Sequence record: AY264775.1
From: Escherichia phage T7
Length of the DNA: 39,093 bases
Strand: one strand, 5' to 3'
Shown here: piece after piece, positions 1,472-23,366 of the stretch
Position numbering within the stretch: the stretch's first letter is position 1
Layout of the letters: each line of letters begins with the position of its first letter
Notes under the pieces: model-generated
Seen by the model: the letters and a program-made list of their open reading frames with translations, nothing else
Database searches by the model: none
What the model was told of the DNA's origin: nothing
Translations under genes and position numbers: made by a program

Positions 1472-1615
1472 ATGTATATGCTTACTATCGGTCTACTCAC
1501 CGTTTTAGATCTAGCTGTAGGTGCATCCTTTGGGAAGGCTTTAGGTGTAGCTGTAGGTTCCTACTTTACCGCTTGCATCATCATAGAAATCATCAAAGGG
1601 GCACTACGCAAATGA
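1472..1615 (+). CDS. 0.5: gp0.5, small hydrophobic early protein
   Basis: 47-aa [15 protein letters not shown]... preceded by gaggaag SD; the longer track ORF 1406..1615 begins inside the RNase III site. Confidence 0.75.
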
Positions 1616-2256
1616 TGAAGCACTACGTTATGCCAATCCACACGTCCAACGGGACAACCGTATGTACACCTGATGGGTTCGCAATGAAACAACGAATCGA
1701 ACGCCTTAAGCGTGAACTCCGCATTAACCGCAAGTTCTTTGAGGGCATCGCCTCATTCGACATGCATAGCGGGAACATCATGTTCTCAAATGGAGACGTA
1801 CCATACATCACCAACCCGGTATCATTCTCGCAGAAGAAAGATGGTGGCGCATTCAGCATCGACCCTGAGGAACTCATCAAGGAAGTCGAGGAAGTCGCAC
1901 GACAGAAAGAAATTGACCGCGCTAAGGCCCGTAAAGAACGTCACGAGGGGCGCTTAGAGGCACGCAGATTCAAACGTCGCAACCGCAAGGCACGTAAAGC
2001 ACACAAAGCTAAGCGCGAAAGAATGCTTGCTGCGTGGCGATGGGCTGAACGTCAAGAACGGCGTAACCATGAGGTAGCTGTAGATGTACTAAGAAGAACC
2101 AATAACGCTATGCTCTGGGTCAACATGTTCTCTGGGGACTTTAAGGCGCTTGAGAAACGAATCGCGCTGCACTGGCGTAATGCTGACCGGATGGCTATCG
2201 CTAATGGTCTTACGCTCAACATTGATAAGCAACTTGACGTAATGTTAATGGACTGA
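1612..2256 (+). CDS. 0.6/0.7: In-frame fusion: N-terminal ~41 aa of gp0.6 joined to the C-terminal ~173 aa of gp0.7 (host-transcription shutoff part; protein kinase domain deleted)
   Basis: ORF starts [14 protein letters not shown] (gp0.6) and continues ...RINRK|[17 protein letters not shown]... (gp0.7 C-terminal region); length accounting against T7 indicates ~820 bp missing here. Confidence 0.8.
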
Positions 2257-2261
2257 TAGTC

Positions 2262-2312
2262 TTATCTTACAGGTCATTTGCGGGTGGCCTGAATAGGTAC
2301 GATTTACTAACT
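2262..2312 (+). promoter_or_regulatory. RNase III site R1 (approximate)
   Basis: Hairpin-forming leader upstream of gene 1 at the T7 R1 position. Confidence 0.45.
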
Positions 2313-2326
2313 GAAAGAGGCACTAA

Positions 2327-4978
2327 ATGAACACGATTAACATTGCTAAGAACGACTTCTCTGACATCGAACTGGCTGCTATCCCGTTCAACACTCTGGC
2401 TGACCATTACGGTGAGCGTTTAGCTCGCGAACAGTTGGCTCTTGAACATGAGTCTTACGAGATGGGTGAAGCACGCTTCCGCAAGATGTTTGAGCGTCAA
2501 CTTAAAGCTGGTGAGGTTGCGGATAACGCTGCCGCCAAGCCTCTCATCACTACCCTACTCCCTAAGATGATTGCACGCATCAACGACTGGTTTGAGGAAG
2601 TGAAAGCTAAGCGCGGCAAGCGTCCGACAGCCTTCCAGTTTCTGCAAGAAATCAAGCCGGAAGCCGTAGCGTACATCACCATTAAAACCACTCTGGCTTG
2701 CCTAACCAGTGCTGACAATATAACCGTTCAGGCTGTAGCAAGCGCAATCGGTCGGGCCATTGAGGACGAGGCTCGCTTCGGTCGTATCCGTGACCTTGAA
2801 GCTAAGCACTTCAAGAAAAACGTTGAGGAACAACTCAACAAGCGCGTAGGGCACGTCTACAAGAAAGCATTTATGCAAGTTGTCGAGGCTGACATGCTCT
2901 CTAAGGGTCTACTCGGTGGCGAGGCGTGGTCTTCGTGGCATAAGGAAGACTCTATTCATGTAGGAGTACGCTGCATCGAGATGCTCATTGAGTCAACCGG
3001 AATGGTTAGCTTACACCGCCAAAATGCTGGCGTAGTAGGTCAAGACTCTGAGACTATCGAACTCGCACCTGAATACGCTGAGGCTATCGCAACCCGTGCA
3101 GGTGCGCTGGCTGGCATTTCTCCAATGTTCCAACCTTGCGTAATTCCTTCTAAGCCGTGGACTGGCATTACTGGTGGTGGCTATTGGGCTAACGGTCGTC
3201 GTCCTCTGGCGCTGGTGCGTACTCACAGTAAGAAAGCACTGATGCGCTACGAAAACGTTTACATGCCTGAGGTGTACAAAGCGATTAACATTGCGCAAAA
3301 CACCGCATGGAAAATCAACAAGAAAGTCCTAGCGGTCGCCAACGTAATTACCAAGTGGAAGCATTGTCCGGTCGAGGACATCCCTGCGATTGAGCGTGAA
3401 GAACTCCCGATGAAACCGAAAGACATCGACATGAATCCTGAGGCTCTCACCGCGTGGAAACGTGCTGCCGCTGCTGTGTACCGCAAGGACAAGGCTCGCA
3501 AATCTCGCCGTATCAACCTTGAGTTCATGCTTGAGCAAGCCAATAAGTTTGCTAACCATAAGGCCATCTGGTTCCCTTACAACATGGACTGGCGCGGTCG
3601 TGTTTACGCTGTGTCAATGTTCAACCCGCAAGGTAACGATATGACCAAAGGACTGCTTACGCTGGCGAAAGGTAAACCAATCGGTAAGGAAGGTTACTAC
3701 TGGCTGAAAATCCACGGTGCAAACTGTGCGGGTGTCGATAAGGTTCCGTTCCCTGAGCGCATCAAGTTCATTGAGGAAAACCACGAGAACATCATGGCTT
3801 GTGCTAAGTCTCCACTGGAGAACACTTGGTGGGCTGAGCAAAATTCTCCGTTCTGCTTCCTTGCGTTCTGCTTTGAGTACGCTGGAGTACAGCACCACGG
3901 CCTGAGCTATAACTGCTCCCTTCCGCTGGCGTTTGACGGGTCTTGCTCTGGCATCCAGCACTTCTCCGCGATGCTCCGAGATGAGGTAGGTGGTCGCGCG
4001 GTTAACTTGCTTCCTAGTGAAACCGTTCAGGACATCTACGGGATTGTTGCTAAAAAAGTCAACGAGATTCTACAAGCAGACGCAATCAATGGGACTGATA
4101 ACGAAGTAGTTACCGTGACCGATGAGAACACTGGTGAAATCTCTGAGAAAATCAAACTGGGCACTAAGGCACTGGCTGGTCAATGGCTGGCTTACGGTGT
4201 TACTCGCAGTGTGACTAAGCGTTCAGTCATGACGCTGGCTTACGGGTCCAAAGAGTTCGGCTTCCGTCAACAAGTGCTAGAAGATACCATTCAGCCAGCT
4301 ATTGATTCCGGCAAGGGTCTGATGTTCACTCAGCCGAATCAGGCTGCTGGATACATGGCTAAGCTGATTTGGGAATCTGTGAGCGTGACGGTGGTAGCTG
4401 CGGTTGAAGCAATGAACTGGCTTAAGTCTGCTGCTAAGCTGCTGGCTGCTGAGGTCAAAGATAAGAAGACTGGAGAGATTCTTCGCAAGCGTTGCGCTGT
4501 GCATTGGGTAACTCCTGATGGTTTCCCTGTGTGGCAGGAATACAAGAAGCCTATTCAGACGCGCTTGAACCTGATGTTCCTCGGTCAGTTCCGCTTACAG
4601 CCTACCATTAATACCAACAAAGATAGCGAGATTGATGCACACAAACAGGAGTCTGGTATCGCTCCTAACTTTGTACACAGTCAAGACGGTAGCCATCTTC
4701 GTAAGACTGTAGTGTGGGCACACGAGAAGTACGGAATCGAATCTTTTGCACTGATTCACGACTCCTTCGGTACCATTCCGGCTGACGCTGCGAACCTGTT
4801 CAAAGCAGTGCGCGAAACTATGGTTGACACATATGAGTCTTGTGATGTACTGGCTGATTTCTACGACCAGTTCGCTGACCAGTTGCACGAGTCTCAATTG
4901 GACAAAATGCCAGCACTTCCGGCTAAAGGTAACTTGAACCTCCGTGACATCTTAGAGTCGGACTTCGCGTTCGCGTAA
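2327..4978 (+). CDS. 1: T7 RNA polymerase (gp1)
   Basis: 883-aa ORF, essentially identical to canonical T7 RNAP apart from a handful of substitutions. Confidence 0.99.
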   Translation: MNTINIAKNDFSDIELAAIPFNTLADHYGERLAREQLALEHESYEMGEARFRKMFERQLKAGEVADNAAAKPLITTLLPKMIARINDWFEEVKAKRGKRPTAFQFLQEIKPEAVAYITIKTTLACLTSADNITVQAVASAIGRAIEDEARFGRIRDLEAKHFKKNVEEQLNKRVGHVYKKAFMQVVEADMLSKGLLGGEAWSSWHKEDSIHVGVRCIEMLIESTGMVSLHRQNAGVVGQDSETIELAPEYAEAIATRAGALAGISPMFQPCVIPSKPWTGITGGGYWANGRRPLALVRTHSKKALMRYENVYMPEVYKAINIAQNTAWKINKKVLAVANVITKWKHCPVEDIPAIEREELPMKPKDIDMNPEALTAWKRAAAAVYRKDKARKSRRINLEFMLEQANKFANHKAIWFPYNMDWRGRVYAVSMFNPQGNDMTKGLLTLAKGKPIGKEGYYWLKIHGANCAGVDKVPFPERIKFIEENHENIMACAKSPLENTWWAEQNSPFCFLAFCFEYAGVQHHGLSYNCSLPLAFDGSCSGIQHFSAMLRDEVGGRAVNLLPSETVQDIYGIVAKKVNEILQADAINGTDNEVVTVTDENTGEISEKIKLGTKALAGQWLAYGVTRSVTKRSVMTLAYGSKEFGFRQQVLEDTIQPAIDSGKGLMFTQPNQAAGYMAKLIWESVSVTVVAAVEAMNWLKSAAKLLAAEVKDKKTGEILRKRCAVHWVTPDGFPVWQEYKKPIQTRLNLMFLGQFRLQPTINTNKDSEIDAHKQESGIAPNFVHSQDGSHLRKTVVWAHEKYGIESFALIHDSFGTIPADAANLFKAVRETMVDTYESCDVLADFYDQFADQLHESQLDKMPALPAKGNLNLRDILESDFAFA

Positions 4979-5630: not shown

Positions 5631-6710
5631 ATGATGAACATTAAGACTAACCCGTTTAAAGCCGTGTCTTTCGTAGAGTCTGCCATTAAGAAGGCTCTGG
5701 ATAACGCTGGGTATCTTATCGCTGAAATCAAGTACAATGATGTACGCGGGAACATCTGCGTAGACAATACTGCTAACAGTTACTGGCTCTCTCGTGTATC
5801 TAAAACGATTCCGGCACTGGAGCACTTAAACGGGTTTGATGTTCGTTGGAAGCGTTTACTGAACGATGATCGTTGCTTCTACAAAGATGGCTTTATGCTT
5901 GATGGGGAACTCATGGTCAAGGGCGTAAACTTTAATACAGGGTCCGGTCTACTGCGTACCAAATGGACTGACACGAAGAACCAAGAGTTCCATGAAGAGT
6001 TATTCGTTGAACCAATCCGTAAGAAAGATAAAGTTCCCTTTAAGCTGCACACTGAACACCTTCACATAAAACTGTACGCTATCCTCCCGCTGCACATCGT
6101 GGAGTCTGGAAAAGACTGTGATGTCATGACGTTGCTCATGCAGGAACACGTTAAGAACATGCTGCCTCTGCTACAAGAATATTTTCCTGAAATCGAATGG
6201 CAAGCGGCTGAATCTTACGAGGTCTACGATATGGTAGAACTACAGCAACTGTACGAGCAGAAGCGAGCAGAAGGCCATGAGGGTCTCATTGTGAAAGACC
6301 CGATGTGTATCTATAAGCGCGGTAAAAAATCTGGCTGGTGGAAAATGAAACCTGAGAACGAAGCTGACGGTATCATTCAGGGTCTGATATGGGGTATAAA
6401 AGGTCTGGCTAATGAAGGTAAAGTGATTGGTTTTGAGGTGCTTCTTGAGAATGGTCGTTTAGTTAACGCCACGAATATTTCTCGTGCCTTAATGGATGAG
6501 TTCACTGAGACAGTAAAAGAGGCCACTCTAAGTCAATGGGGATTCTTTAGCCCATACGGTATTGGCGACAACGATGCTTGTACTATTAACCCTTACGATG
6601 GCTGGGCGTGTCAAATTAGCTACATGGAGGAAACACCTGATGGCTCTTTGCGGCACCCATCGTTCGTAATGTTCCGTGGCACTGAGGACAACCCTCAAGA
6701 GAAAATGTAA
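5631..6710 (+). CDS. 1.3: ATP-dependent DNA ligase (gp1.3)
   Basis: 359-aa ORF, T7 ligase. Confidence 0.95.
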   Translation: MMNIKTNPFKAVSFVESAIKKALDNAGYLIAEIKYNDVRGNICVDNTANSYWLSRVSKTIPALEHLNGFDVRWKRLLNDDRCFYKDGFMLDGELMVKGVNFNTGSGLLRTKWTDTKNQEFHEELFVEPIRKKDKVPFKLHTEHLHIKLYAILPLHIVESGKDCDVMTLLMQEHVKNMLPLLQEYFPEIEWQAAESYEVYDMVELQQLYEQKRAEGHEGLIVKDPMCIYKRGKKSGWWKMKPENEADGIIQGLIWGIKGLANEGKVIGFEVLLENGRLVNATNISRALMDEFTETVKEATLSQWGFFSPYGIGDNDACTINPYDGWACQISYMEETPDGSLRHPSFVMFRGTEDNPQEKM

Positions 6711-16673: not shown

Positions 16674-17562
16674 CCTTAAACAATTCTATGAGTTACGTGA
16701 AGGCTGCGACGACAAGAGTATCCTTGTGATGGACGGCGACTGGCTGGTCTTCCAAGCTATGAGTGCTGCTGAGTTTGATGCCTCTTGGGAGGAAGAGATT
16801 TGGCACCGATGCTGTGACCACGCTAAGGCCCGTCAGATTCTTGAGGATTCCATTAAGTCCTACGAGACCCGTAAGAAGGCTTGGGCAGGTGCTCCAATTG
16901 TCCTTGCGTTCACCGATAGTGTTAACTGGCGTAAAGAACTGGTTGACCCGAACTATAAGACTAACCGTAAGGCCGTGAAGAAACCTGTAGGGTACTTTGA
17001 GTTCCTTGATGCTCTCTTTGAGCGCGAAGAGTTCTATTGCATCCGTGAGCCTATGCTTGAGGGTGATGACGTTATGGGAGTTATTGCTTCCAATCCGTCT
17101 GCCTTCGGTGCTCGTAAGGCTGTAATCATCTCTTGCGATAAGGACTTTAAGACCATTCCTAACTGTGACTTCCTGTGGTGTACCACTGGTAACATCCTGA
17201 TTCAGACCGAAGAGTCCGCTGACTGGTGGCACCTTTTCCAGACCATCAAGGGTGACATCACTGATGGTTACTCAGGGATTGCTGGATGGGGTGATACCGC
17301 CGAGGACTTCTTGAATAACCCGTTCATAATCGAGCCTAAAACGTCTGTGCTTAAGTCCGGTAAGAACAAAGGCCAAGAGGTTACTAAATGGATTAAACGC
17401 GATCCTGAGCCTCATGAGACGCTTTGGGACTGCATTAAGTCCATTGGCGCGAAGGCTGGTATGACCGAAGAGGATATTATCAAGCAGGGCCAAATGGCTC
17501 GAATTCTACGGTTCAACGAGTACAACTTTATTGACAAGGAGATTTACCTGTGGAGACCGTAG
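16660..17562 (+). CDS. 6: 5'-3' exonuclease (gp6)
   Basis: 300-aa ORF. Confidence 0.97.
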   Translation: MALLDLKQFYELREGCDDKSILVMDGDWLVFQAMSAAEFDASWEEEIWHRCCDHAKARQILEDSIKSYETRKKAWAGAPIVLAFTDSVNWRKELVDPNYKTNRKAVKKPVGYFEFLDALFEREEFYCIREPMLEGDDVMGVIASNPSAFGARKAVIISCDKDFKTIPNCDFLWCTTGNILIQTEESADWWHLFQTIKGDITDGYSGIAGWGDTAEDFLNNPFIIEPKTSVLKSGKNKGQEVTKWIKRDPEPHETLWDCIKSIGAKAGMTEEDIIKQGQMARILRFNEYNFIDKEIYLWRP

Positions 17563-21105: not shown

Positions 21106-22029
21106 ATGGCTGAATCTAATGCAGACGTATATGCATCTTTTGGCGTGAACTCCGCTGTGATGTCTGGTGGTTCCGTTGAGAAACATGAGCAGAACATGCT
21201 GGCTCTTGATGTTGCTGCCCGTGATGGCGATGATGCAATCGAGTTAGCGTCAGACGAAGTGGAAACAGAACGTGACCTGTATGACAACTCTGACCCGTTC
21301 GGTCAAGAGGATGACGAAGGCCGCATTCAGGTTCGTATCGGTGATGGCTCTGAGCCGACCGATGTGAACACTGGAGAAGAAGGCGTTGAGGGCACCGAAG
21401 GTTCCGAAGAGTTTACCCCACTGGGCGAGACTCCAGAAGAACTGGTAGCTGCCTCTGAGCAACTTGGTGAGCACGAAGAGGGCTTCCAAGAGATGATTAA
21501 CATTGCTGCTGAGCGTGGCATGAGTGTCGAGACCATTGAGGCTATCCAGCGTGAGTACGAGGAGAACGAAGAGTTGTCCGCCGAGTCCTACGCTAAGTTG
21601 GCTGAAATTGGCTACACGAAGGCTTTCATTGACTCGTATATCCGTGGTCAAGAAGCTCTGGTGAAGCAGTATGTAAACAGTGTCATTGAGTACGCTGGTG
21701 GTCGTGAACGTTTTGATGCACTGTATAACCACCTTGAGACGCACAACCCTGAGGCTGCACAGTCGCTGGATAATGCGTTGACCAATCGTGACTTAGCGAC
21801 CGTTAAGGCTATCATCAACTTGGCTGATGAATCTCGCGTTAAGGCGTTCGGTCGTAAGCCAACTCGTAGTGTGACTAATCGTGCTATTCCGGCTAAACCT
21901 CAGGTTATCAAGTGTGAAGGCTTTGCGGACCGTAGCGAGATGATTAAAGCTATGAGTGATCCTCGGTATCGCACAGATGCCAACTATCGTCGTCAAGTCG
22001 AACAGAAAGTAATCGATTCGAACTTCTGA
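21106..22029 (+). CDS. 9: Capsid assembly scaffolding protein gp9
   Basis: 307-aa acidic ORF. Confidence 0.97.
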   Translation: MAESNADVYASFGVNSAVMSGGSVEKHEQNMLALDVAARDGDDAIELASDEVETERDLYDNSDPFGQEDDEGRIQVRIGDGSEPTDVNTGEEGVEGTEGSEEFTPLGETPEELVAASEQLGEHEEGFQEMINIAAERGMSVETIEAIQREYEENEELSAESYAKLAEIGYTKAFIDSYIRGQEALVKQYVNSVIEYAGGRERFDALYNHLETHNPEAAQSLDNALTNRDLATVKAIINLADESRVKAFGRKPTRSVTNRAIPAKPQVIKCEGFADRSEMIKAMSDPRYRTDANYRRQVEQKVIDSNF

Positions 22030-22042
22030 TAGACTTCGAAAT

Positions 22043-22065
22043 TAATACGACTCACTATAGGGAGA
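22043..22065 (+). promoter_or_regulatory. T7 promoter phi10 (class III)
   Basis: taatacgactcactatagggaga followed by the gene 10 leader familiar from pET vectors. Confidence 0.98.
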
Positions 22066-22100
22066 CCACAACGGTTTCCCTCTAGAAATAATTTTGTTTA

Positions 22101-22122
22101 ACTTTAAGAAGGAAATATACAT
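22101..22122 (+). promoter_or_regulatory. Gene 10 translation initiation region with altered Shine-Dalgarno (aaggaa instead of aaggag)
   Basis: tttaagaaggaaatatacat ATG; the canonical T7 gene 10 leader is tttaagaaggagatatacat. Confidence 0.85.
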
Positions 22123-23160
22123 ATGGCTAGCATGACTGGTGGACAGCAAATGGGTACTAATCAAGGTAAAGGTGTAGTTGCTGCTGGAGATAAACTGGCG
22201 TTGTTCTTGAAGATATTTGGCGGTGAAGTCCTGACTGCGTTCGCTCGTACCTCCGTGACCACTTCTCGCCACATGGTACGTTCCATCTCCAGCGGTAAAT
22301 CCGCTCAGTTCCCTGTTCTGGGTCGCACTCAGGCAGCGTATCTGGCTCCGGGCGAGAACCTCGACGATAAACGTAAGGACATCAAACACACCGAGAAGGT
22401 AATCACCATTGACGGTCTCCTGACGGCTGACGTTCTGATTTATGATATTGAGGACGCGATGAACCACTACGACGTTCGCTCTGAGTATACCTCTCAGTTG
22501 GGTGAATCTCTGGCGATGGCTGCGGATGGTGCGGTTCTGGCTGAGATTGCCGGTCTGTGTAACGTGGAAAGCAAATATAATGAGAACATCGAGGGCTTAG
22601 GTACTGCTACCGTAATTGAGATCACTCAGAACAAGACCGCACTTACCGACCAAGTTGTGCTGGGTAAGGAGATTATTGCGGCTCTGACTAAGGCTCGTGC
22701 GACTCTGACCAAGAACTATGTTCCGGCTGCTGACCGTGTGTTCTACTGTGACCCAGATAGCTACTCTGCGATTCTGGCAGCACTGATGCCGAACGCAGCA
22801 AACTACGCTGCTCTGATTGACCCTGAGAAGGGTTCTATCCGCAACGTTATGGGCTTTGAGGTTGTAGAAGTTCCGCACCTCACCGCTGGTGGTGCTGGTA
22901 TTGCTCGTGAGGGCACTACTGGTCAGAAGCACGTCTTCCCTGCCAATAAAGGTGAGGGTAATGTCAAGGTTGCTAAGGACAACGTTATCGGCCTGTTCAT
23001 GCACCGCTCTGCGGTAGGTACTGTTAAGCTGCGTGACTTGGCTCTGGAGCGCGCTCGCCGTGCTAACTTCCAAGCGGACCAGATTATCGCTAAGTACGCA
23101 ATGGGTCACGGTGGTCTTCGCCCAGAAGCTGCTGGTGCAGTGGTTTTCAAAGTGGAGTAA
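22123..23160 (+). CDS. 10A: Major capsid protein gp10A
   Basis: 345-aa ORF beginning MASMTGGQQMG (T7-tag). Confidence 0.99.
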   Translation: MASMTGGQQMGTNQGKGVVAAGDKLALFLKIFGGEVLTAFARTSVTTSRHMVRSISSGKSAQFPVLGRTQAAYLAPGENLDDKRKDIKHTEKVITIDGLLTADVLIYDIEDAMNHYDVRSEYTSQLGESLAMAADGAVLAEIAGLCNVESKYNENIEGLGTATVIEITQNKTALTDQVVLGKEIIAALTKARATLTKNYVPAADRVFYCDPDSYSAILAALMPNAANYAALIDPEKGSIRNVMGFEVVEVPHLTAGGAGIAREGTTGQKHVFPANKGEGNVKVAKDNVIGLFMHRSAVGTVKLRDLALERARRANFQADQIIAKYAMGHGGLRPEAAGAVVFKVE

Positions 23161-23318
23161 TGCTGGGGGTGGCCTCAACGGTCGCTGCTAGTCCCGAAGA
23201 GGCGAGTGTTACTTCAACAGAAGAAACCTTAACGCCAGCACAGGAGGCCGCACGCACCCGCGCTGCTAACAAAGCCTGAAAGGAAGCTGAGTTGGCTGCT
23301 GTCACCGCTGAGCAATAA
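22123..23318 (+). CDS. 10B: Minor capsid protein gp10B (frameshift product); the -1 frame extension carries a premature TGA at 23277-23279
   Basis: -1 frame after the shift reads ...EAARTRAANKA*KEAELAAVTAEQ*. Confidence 0.75.
23142..23150 (+). other. Programmed -1 ribosomal frameshift region of gene 10 (produces 10B)
   Basis: ggttttcaa slippery stretch just before the 10A stop; the -1 frame continues toward 23318. Confidence 0.7.
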
Positions 23319-23366
23319 CTAGCATAACCCCTTGGGGCCTCTAAACGGGTCTTGAGGGGTTTTTTG
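23319..23366 (+). terminator. Tphi terminator for T7 RNAP
   Basis: ctagcataaccccttggggcctctaaacgggtcttgaggggttttttg, the canonical T7 terminator. Confidence 0.98.

Follow-up and report, generated by a model that had tools for sequence, protein, structure and literature searches.

A G>A transition in the gene 10 Shine–Dalgarno sequence of a laboratory-mutagenised bacteriophage T7 genome

The T7 genome deposited as AY264775.1 (39,093 nt; this whole stretch is referred to as the window) carries an A as the last base of the Shine–Dalgarno sequence of gene 10, which encodes the major capsid protein. This raises the question whether the base has really changed from wild type and, if so, whether the change is a harmful hit, has no effect or adjusts capsid synthesis. 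We consider it very likely that it is a random mutagen transition fixed in a mutation-accumulation line and behaves as a mildly deleterious passenger, not as an adaptation.

The base change and the gene 10 region

We aligned the window with wild-type T7 (NC_001604) and observed A at window position 22114 and G at the corresponding T7 position 22958. The gene 10 Shine–Dalgarno sequence is AAGGAA in the window versus AAGGAG in wild-type T7. A sequence-only reading of the window had proposed exactly this change, and the alignment bears it out: the reference leader reads AAGGAG and not GGAA. The substitution is the sole mismatch to NC_001604 across window positions 22025–22150 and the only difference from wild type in the region from −35 to +35 around the gene 10 start codon. 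The sequence of positions 22109–22125 is AAGGAAATATACATATG (with the longer stretch 22103–22125 being tttaagaaggaaatatacatatg), where the ATG occupies 22123–22125 and the mutated G is preceded by A, which places it in a 5′-purine-G context. The element is contiguously complementary to the 3′ tail of 16S rRNA (ACCUCCUUA) and is followed by a genuine start codon, as is required of a Shine–Dalgarno sequence; the spacer to the ATG is 8 nt (9 nt when counted from the last paired base) and lies within the ∼5 to 10 nt expected. The window matches the wild-type gene 10 leader (g10-L, the pET ribosome-binding site) without a difference from the phi10 promoter to the end of TTAACTTTA, a stretch that includes the 5′ stem-loop and the A/U tract, and again in the spacer ATATACAT and the ATG. 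The upstream enhancer had been expected to be intact, and this was found to be correct. The features of the region are listed in Table 1.

Table 1. Positions of the base change and of the elements in and around gene 10 (window coordinates)
Feature	Position	Strand	Basis
G>A transition (T7 22958), last base of the gene 10 Shine–Dalgarno sequence	22114..22114	+	alignment to NC_001604, K115, P and P82; mutation context
Gene 10 Shine–Dalgarno sequence, AAGGAA (wild type AAGGAG), 5 bp with the 16S 3′ tail left	22109..22114	+	coordinates; duplex energies
A/U-rich translational enhancer (epsilon) TTAACTTTA of the gene 10 leader, unchanged	22098..22106	+	NC_001604 alignment; role in PMC8748333
Class III promoter phi10 (TAATACGACTCACTATAGGGAGA, +1 at 22060), unchanged	22043..22065	+	NC_001604 alignment
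5′ stem-loop of the phi10 transcript (GGGAGACCACAACGGTTTCCC), unchanged	22060..22080	+	NC_001604 alignment; folding
T-phi terminator 3′ of gene 10, unchanged	23319..23366	+	comparison with wild type
Gene 10A, major capsid protein, start codon and context unchanged	22123..23160	+	protein identical to AAP34002.1
New TGA in the frameshifted gene 10B frame (C>T at 23277, T7 24121; CGA to TGA)	23277..23279	+	

No damage was observed in the window to the promoters phi9 and phi10, the terminator T-phi or the 10A/10B slip site, and we found no compensating cis changes in the promoters, the 5′ stem-loop, the first codons, the terminator or the frameshift site of either the window or its sister isolate K115 (described below). 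Of the cis-regulatory elements of gene 10 that we compared, only the Shine–Dalgarno sequence is changed. Elsewhere in the genome, the class II promoters phi1.1A, phi1.5 and phi4c (T7 +1 at 5848, 7778 and 12671) carry G>A changes within the transcribed positions +2 to +5, and no changes were observed in the six consensus class III/replication promoters (phi6.5, 9, 10, 13, 17 and OR).

The coding sequence of gene 10A contains 9 substitutions, with 6 missense codons (V31I, T167I, A172T, A179V, A194T and T260I) and 2 synonymous changes, and the resulting protein is identical to the GenBank entry AAP34002.1 (‘gene 10A [Escherichia phage T7]’). The new TGA in the 10B frame strips the last 13 residues from the minor capsid protein; it is common to the window and K115 and absent from the independent isolates P and P82. 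The sibling GenBank records of the window annotate gene 10A only, not 10B. At codon 172 of gene 10A (window 22636, T7 23480) three different bases were observed, namely G (Ala) in wild type, A (Thr) in the window and C (Pro) in K115, which could reflect a second-site or compensatory capsid change during recovery or else a sequencing discrepancy. K115 additionally carries R49H in gene 10A.

Mutational background and sister lines

The window is a near-complete T7 genome and differs from NC_001604 by 414 substitutions, an 820-bp deletion and two 3-bp indels. GC>AT transitions account for 390 of the 414 substitutions (94%; 199 G>A and 191 C>T), and 312 of these 390 (80%) are located at 5′-purine-G (odds ratio 3.9, p = 5e-33); in the hottest contexts, GGgG, GGgA and AGgA, ∼5% of the sites are mutated. 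A preference for GC>AT changes at purine-preceded G is the classical specificity of N-methyl-N′-nitro-N-nitrosoguanidine (MNNG). The change at 22114 is a GC>AT transition at a 5′-AG site and thereby matches the nitrosoguanidine type; with a mutagen-type substitution load across the whole genome, it is therefore ordinary. The sequence has already been published as that of a laboratory-mutagenised T7 genome, and the change at 22114 is one expected mutation among its hundreds.

The ratio omega (non-synonymous to synonymous GC>AT changes relative to the mutational expectation) was ∼0.99 in non-essential genes and ∼0.46 in essential/structural genes. This points to weak selection, so that only strongly harmful changes were filtered out. 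Three nonsense mutations were found in non-essential genes, namely 4.7 (T7 14070), 5.7 (17305) and 5.9 (17397), and no stop codons in essential/structural genes of the window. The 820-bp deletion at window position ∼1727 (T7 1752–2571) removes part of genes 0.6/0.7, and the two small indels preserve the reading frame, with 3 bp gained in gene 1.5 and 3 bp lost in gene 1.7 (T7 ∼7850 and ∼8197).

The closest relative of the window is T7 isolate K115 (AY264776), its sister in the deposit AY264774-8, with 384 of the 414 substitutions in common. K115 also has the gene 10 Shine–Dalgarno change and the 10B stop codon, and it shares the other Shine–Dalgarno hits as well, save that in gene 5.9, which is deleted. 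The two isolates differ in their deletions, which are larger or additional in K115 (T7 1502–3091 and 16832–17485), and in their private changes, with ∼24 private differences and some Ns in K115 compared to 5 private substitutions in the window. The five window substitutions that are wild type in K115 are located at T7 31, 304, 362, 7020 and 27498 (window 7, 280, 338, 6176 and 26654); they represent either sites that reverted in the course of recovery or changes confined to the K isolate that was sequenced. The isolates P (AY264777) and P82 (AY264778) represent an independent mutagenised line with the same GC>AT spectrum (302 and 319 substitutions) and with Shine–Dalgarno hits of their own in genes 0.4, 1.7, 11 and 19.5; their overlap with the window is limited to 23 substitutions, and their gene 10 Shine–Dalgarno sequence is wild type.

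We take the window to be the K line of a mutagenised series from the Bull laboratory, in keeping with the names of the sibling records (AY264776 to AY264778) and with the protein accession AAP34002.1, which closely precedes the AAP34018+ run of AY264776; K115 is presumably the line after fitness recovery. The transition at 22114 would have been introduced at random by the alkylating mutagen and fixed in this laboratory mutation-accumulation line. PMC2680503 gives AY264774 as the T7+ used by Bull et al. 2003; a later review by the same senior author cites that study for the fixation of random mutations via extreme bottlenecks (PMC4811365).

We also analyzed how often Shine–Dalgarno sites were hit genome-wide, with the influence of the 5′ neighbour on the mutation rate taken into account. 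On this basis, the gene 10 AAGGAG had a probability of ∼0.09 of a mutation in one or more of its three Gs. At the 57 T7 starts, mutation to A was observed for 13 Gs with a pairing partner in the anti-Shine–Dalgarno sequence, and these affect 11 genes (1.2, 1.3, 1.5, 3, 4.5, 5.9, 6.7, 7.7, 10, 13 and 18.5). The 13 hits in the K line compare with 6.6 to 7.0 expected (P ∼0.03), and in the P line 4 were observed versus 5.8 expected. Special targeting of Shine–Dalgarno sites was rejected as an explanation: the excess in K is marginal and not replicated in P, and we regard it as noise or as fine-scale mutagen context. Shine–Dalgarno sites are purine-rich and so are natural targets of this mutagen. 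Larger losses of pairing than in gene 10 were observed in gene 4.5 (−7.4 to −1.0 kcal/mol) and in gene 1.5 (−12.9 to −7.1 kcal/mol).

Pairing, folding and predicted translation

For the duplex between the Shine–Dalgarno sequence and the 16S tail, ViennaRNA calculations gave −8.8 kcal/mol and 6 bp for wild type and −5.7 kcal/mol and 5 bp for the window, a difference of ∼+3 kcal/mol. The shortened complementarity that had been read from the letters is thus confirmed. The net cofold binding, which includes mRNA unfolding, changes from −6.1 kcal/mol in wild type to −3.1 kcal/mol in the window. The minimum free energy of the mRNA (−8.1 versus −8.0) and the unpaired probability of the Shine–Dalgarno sequence hardly shift, and compensation via mRNA folding was ruled out, as folding is unchanged. 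Boltzmann scaling with 0.45 per kcal/mol, the constant of the Salis RBS calculator, predicts a roughly 4-fold lower initiation, a value that carries the imprecision of Boltzmann/thermodynamic initiation models.

The transition removes the 3′-terminal G:C pair of the 6-bp helix between the gene 10 leader (5′-AAGGAG-3′) and the 3′ tail of 16S rRNA. The 5 bp of AAGGA are left with an unaltered aligned distance to the AUG, and wild type is also matched in mRNA folding, in the A/U-rich enhancer, in both promoters and in the terminator. Recruitment of the 30S subunit to the capsid mRNA would then be moderately reduced, by up to ∼4-fold in the model and presumably by less in reality. At lower recruitment, the yield of capsid protein would be somewhat reduced and the burst smaller, while the phage remains viable.

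Published work on the gene 10 leader shows that up to 67% of expression is lost when its A/U-rich upstream elements are truncated, and that strengthening the Shine–Dalgarno sequence of the full-length leader (GGAGAT to GGAGGT) lowers reporter output by 20% (PMC8748333). In the literature we found no translation or fitness measurement of the AAGGAA variant, which is not among the 20 gene 10 RBS derivatives of PMC8748333, and no published comparison of AAGGAG with AAGGAA; both strings occur together in one unrelated paper, and a study of the Shine–Dalgarno landscape yielded no usable value.

Passenger mutation, neutrality or down-tuning

An adaptive change in capsid expression would be expected to recur in independent lines or in natural relatives. 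The mutant 40-mer occurs in 1 of 50,697 phage records (K115); the wild-type 40-mer is present in 101 records, including many of T7 evolved in the laboratory. The mutant 40-mer is absent from all plasmid records, and in a scan of viral contigs the mutant leader was not found, both matches carrying G; one match is a record of wild-type T7 length (39,937 bp) and the base of the other was read directly. The capsid-gene leader retains GGAG in all nine natural relatives examined, which comprise members of six Studiervirinae genera (Teseptimavirus, Teetrevirus, Helsettvirus, Berlinvirus, Kayfunavirus and Przondovirus) and one uncultured contig. Taken together, we observed no recurrence of the change in P, P82, the nine relatives, the phage records other than K115, the plasmid records or the viral contigs.

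What a real drop in gene 10 initiation would cost can be estimated from engineered phages. When the capsid protein of T7 was halved, burst size was halved and fitness fell from 43.2 to 35.7 doublings/h (PMC5592923); the amount of capsid limits burst size, and a fitness cost is therefore expected. Returns diminish when several attenuations of gene 10 expression are combined (PMC6068830). Such engineered attenuation, by codon deoptimisation or by phi9/phi10 knockouts, likewise lowers capsid output via gene 10 expression and provides the figures by which the amount of capsid is related to burst size and then to fitness (PMC5592923, PMC6068830). It differs from the change in the window in being designed and in acting on elongation or transcription, whereas in the window one base of the initiation site was altered by accident, with an effect that is predicted.

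If K115 is indeed a line after recovery, the retained A makes a large cost unlikely, since a one-step A>G reversion would have been selected. Probably the real cost is well below that of a ∼4-fold drop in translation, or capsid is not limiting in the crippled K background. A small cost in this background would fit the diminishing returns seen for combined gene 10 attenuations (PMC6068830).

One alternative to a mildly harmful passenger is effective neutrality, in which the A/U-rich enhancer, the unstructured initiation region and the abundant mRNA drive the leader and a 5-bp AAGGA serves as well as a 6-bp AAGGAG. We regard this as possible though doubtful. K115 shows no reversion here or at the other Shine–Dalgarno hits that it contains, mRNA accessibility is unchanged, and the enhancer and the upstream A/U tract, whose truncation is so costly (PMC8748333), are intact. 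However, a pairing loss of 3 kcal/mol is substantial in thermodynamic models, and the invariance of the G across six genera argues for some constraint in nature. A broader form of the same thought is that T7 translation is unusually robust to Shine–Dalgarno weakening, with the conserved capsid GGAG contributing little in the laboratory and initiation proceeding mainly via the A/U-rich enhancer and open mRNA structure. It is suggested by the loss of anti-Shine–Dalgarno pairing in 11 genes of a viable genome, including the most highly expressed late gene, while K115 reverted none of the hits in the window (gene 5.9 being deleted there); we hold this generalization to be rather unlikely.

Alternatively, the weaker Shine–Dalgarno sequence could have been selected to lower capsid synthesis, for example by rebalancing late proteins or by relieving ribosome competition in a damaged genome. 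Retention of the change in K115 would agree with such a down-tuning, as would the diminishing returns of combined attenuations (PMC6068830) and the 20% loss of reporter output with GGAGGT, by which the site does not simply follow ‘stronger is better’ (PMC8748333). On the other hand, the independent P/P82 line shows no parallel change, the variant is confined to K115 among the phage records and GGAG is conserved in all relatives sampled. Moreover, the change bears the exact mutagen signature and arrived together with ∼413 other substitutions, and T7 with impaired gene 10 expression gained gene 10 substitutions in the first codons, not in the Shine–Dalgarno sequence. Down-tuning as a selected or regulatory change is also disfavoured by the limitation of T7 burst size by capsid amount (PMC5592923), and we consider it very improbable. 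Where the sequence-only reading had offered ‘fitness-reducing hit or down-tuning’, the first part fits best and is plausible, and the second part is without support.

An error of sequencing or assembly in the deposited record is hardly credible: several Ns and odd transversions in the K115 record indicate that these sequences of 2003 are not flawless, but the A at 22114 is also present in the separately deposited K115, and it bears the dominant mutational signature.

The substitution at 22114 is thus probably an ordinary, mildly harmful passenger and not a regulatory feature. Taken alone it matters little, as a hit to be expected in a published mutation-accumulation genome. It nevertheless amounts to a natural experiment, in which a phage is viable despite the mutation of a conserved base in the gene 10 leader of pET vectors, the ribosome-binding site used most widely in bacteria. 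The presumed descendant K115 keeps the mutated base, whose fitness cost is thereby loosely limited from above, and the AAGGAA leader may serve as a slightly weaker variant for expression tuning.
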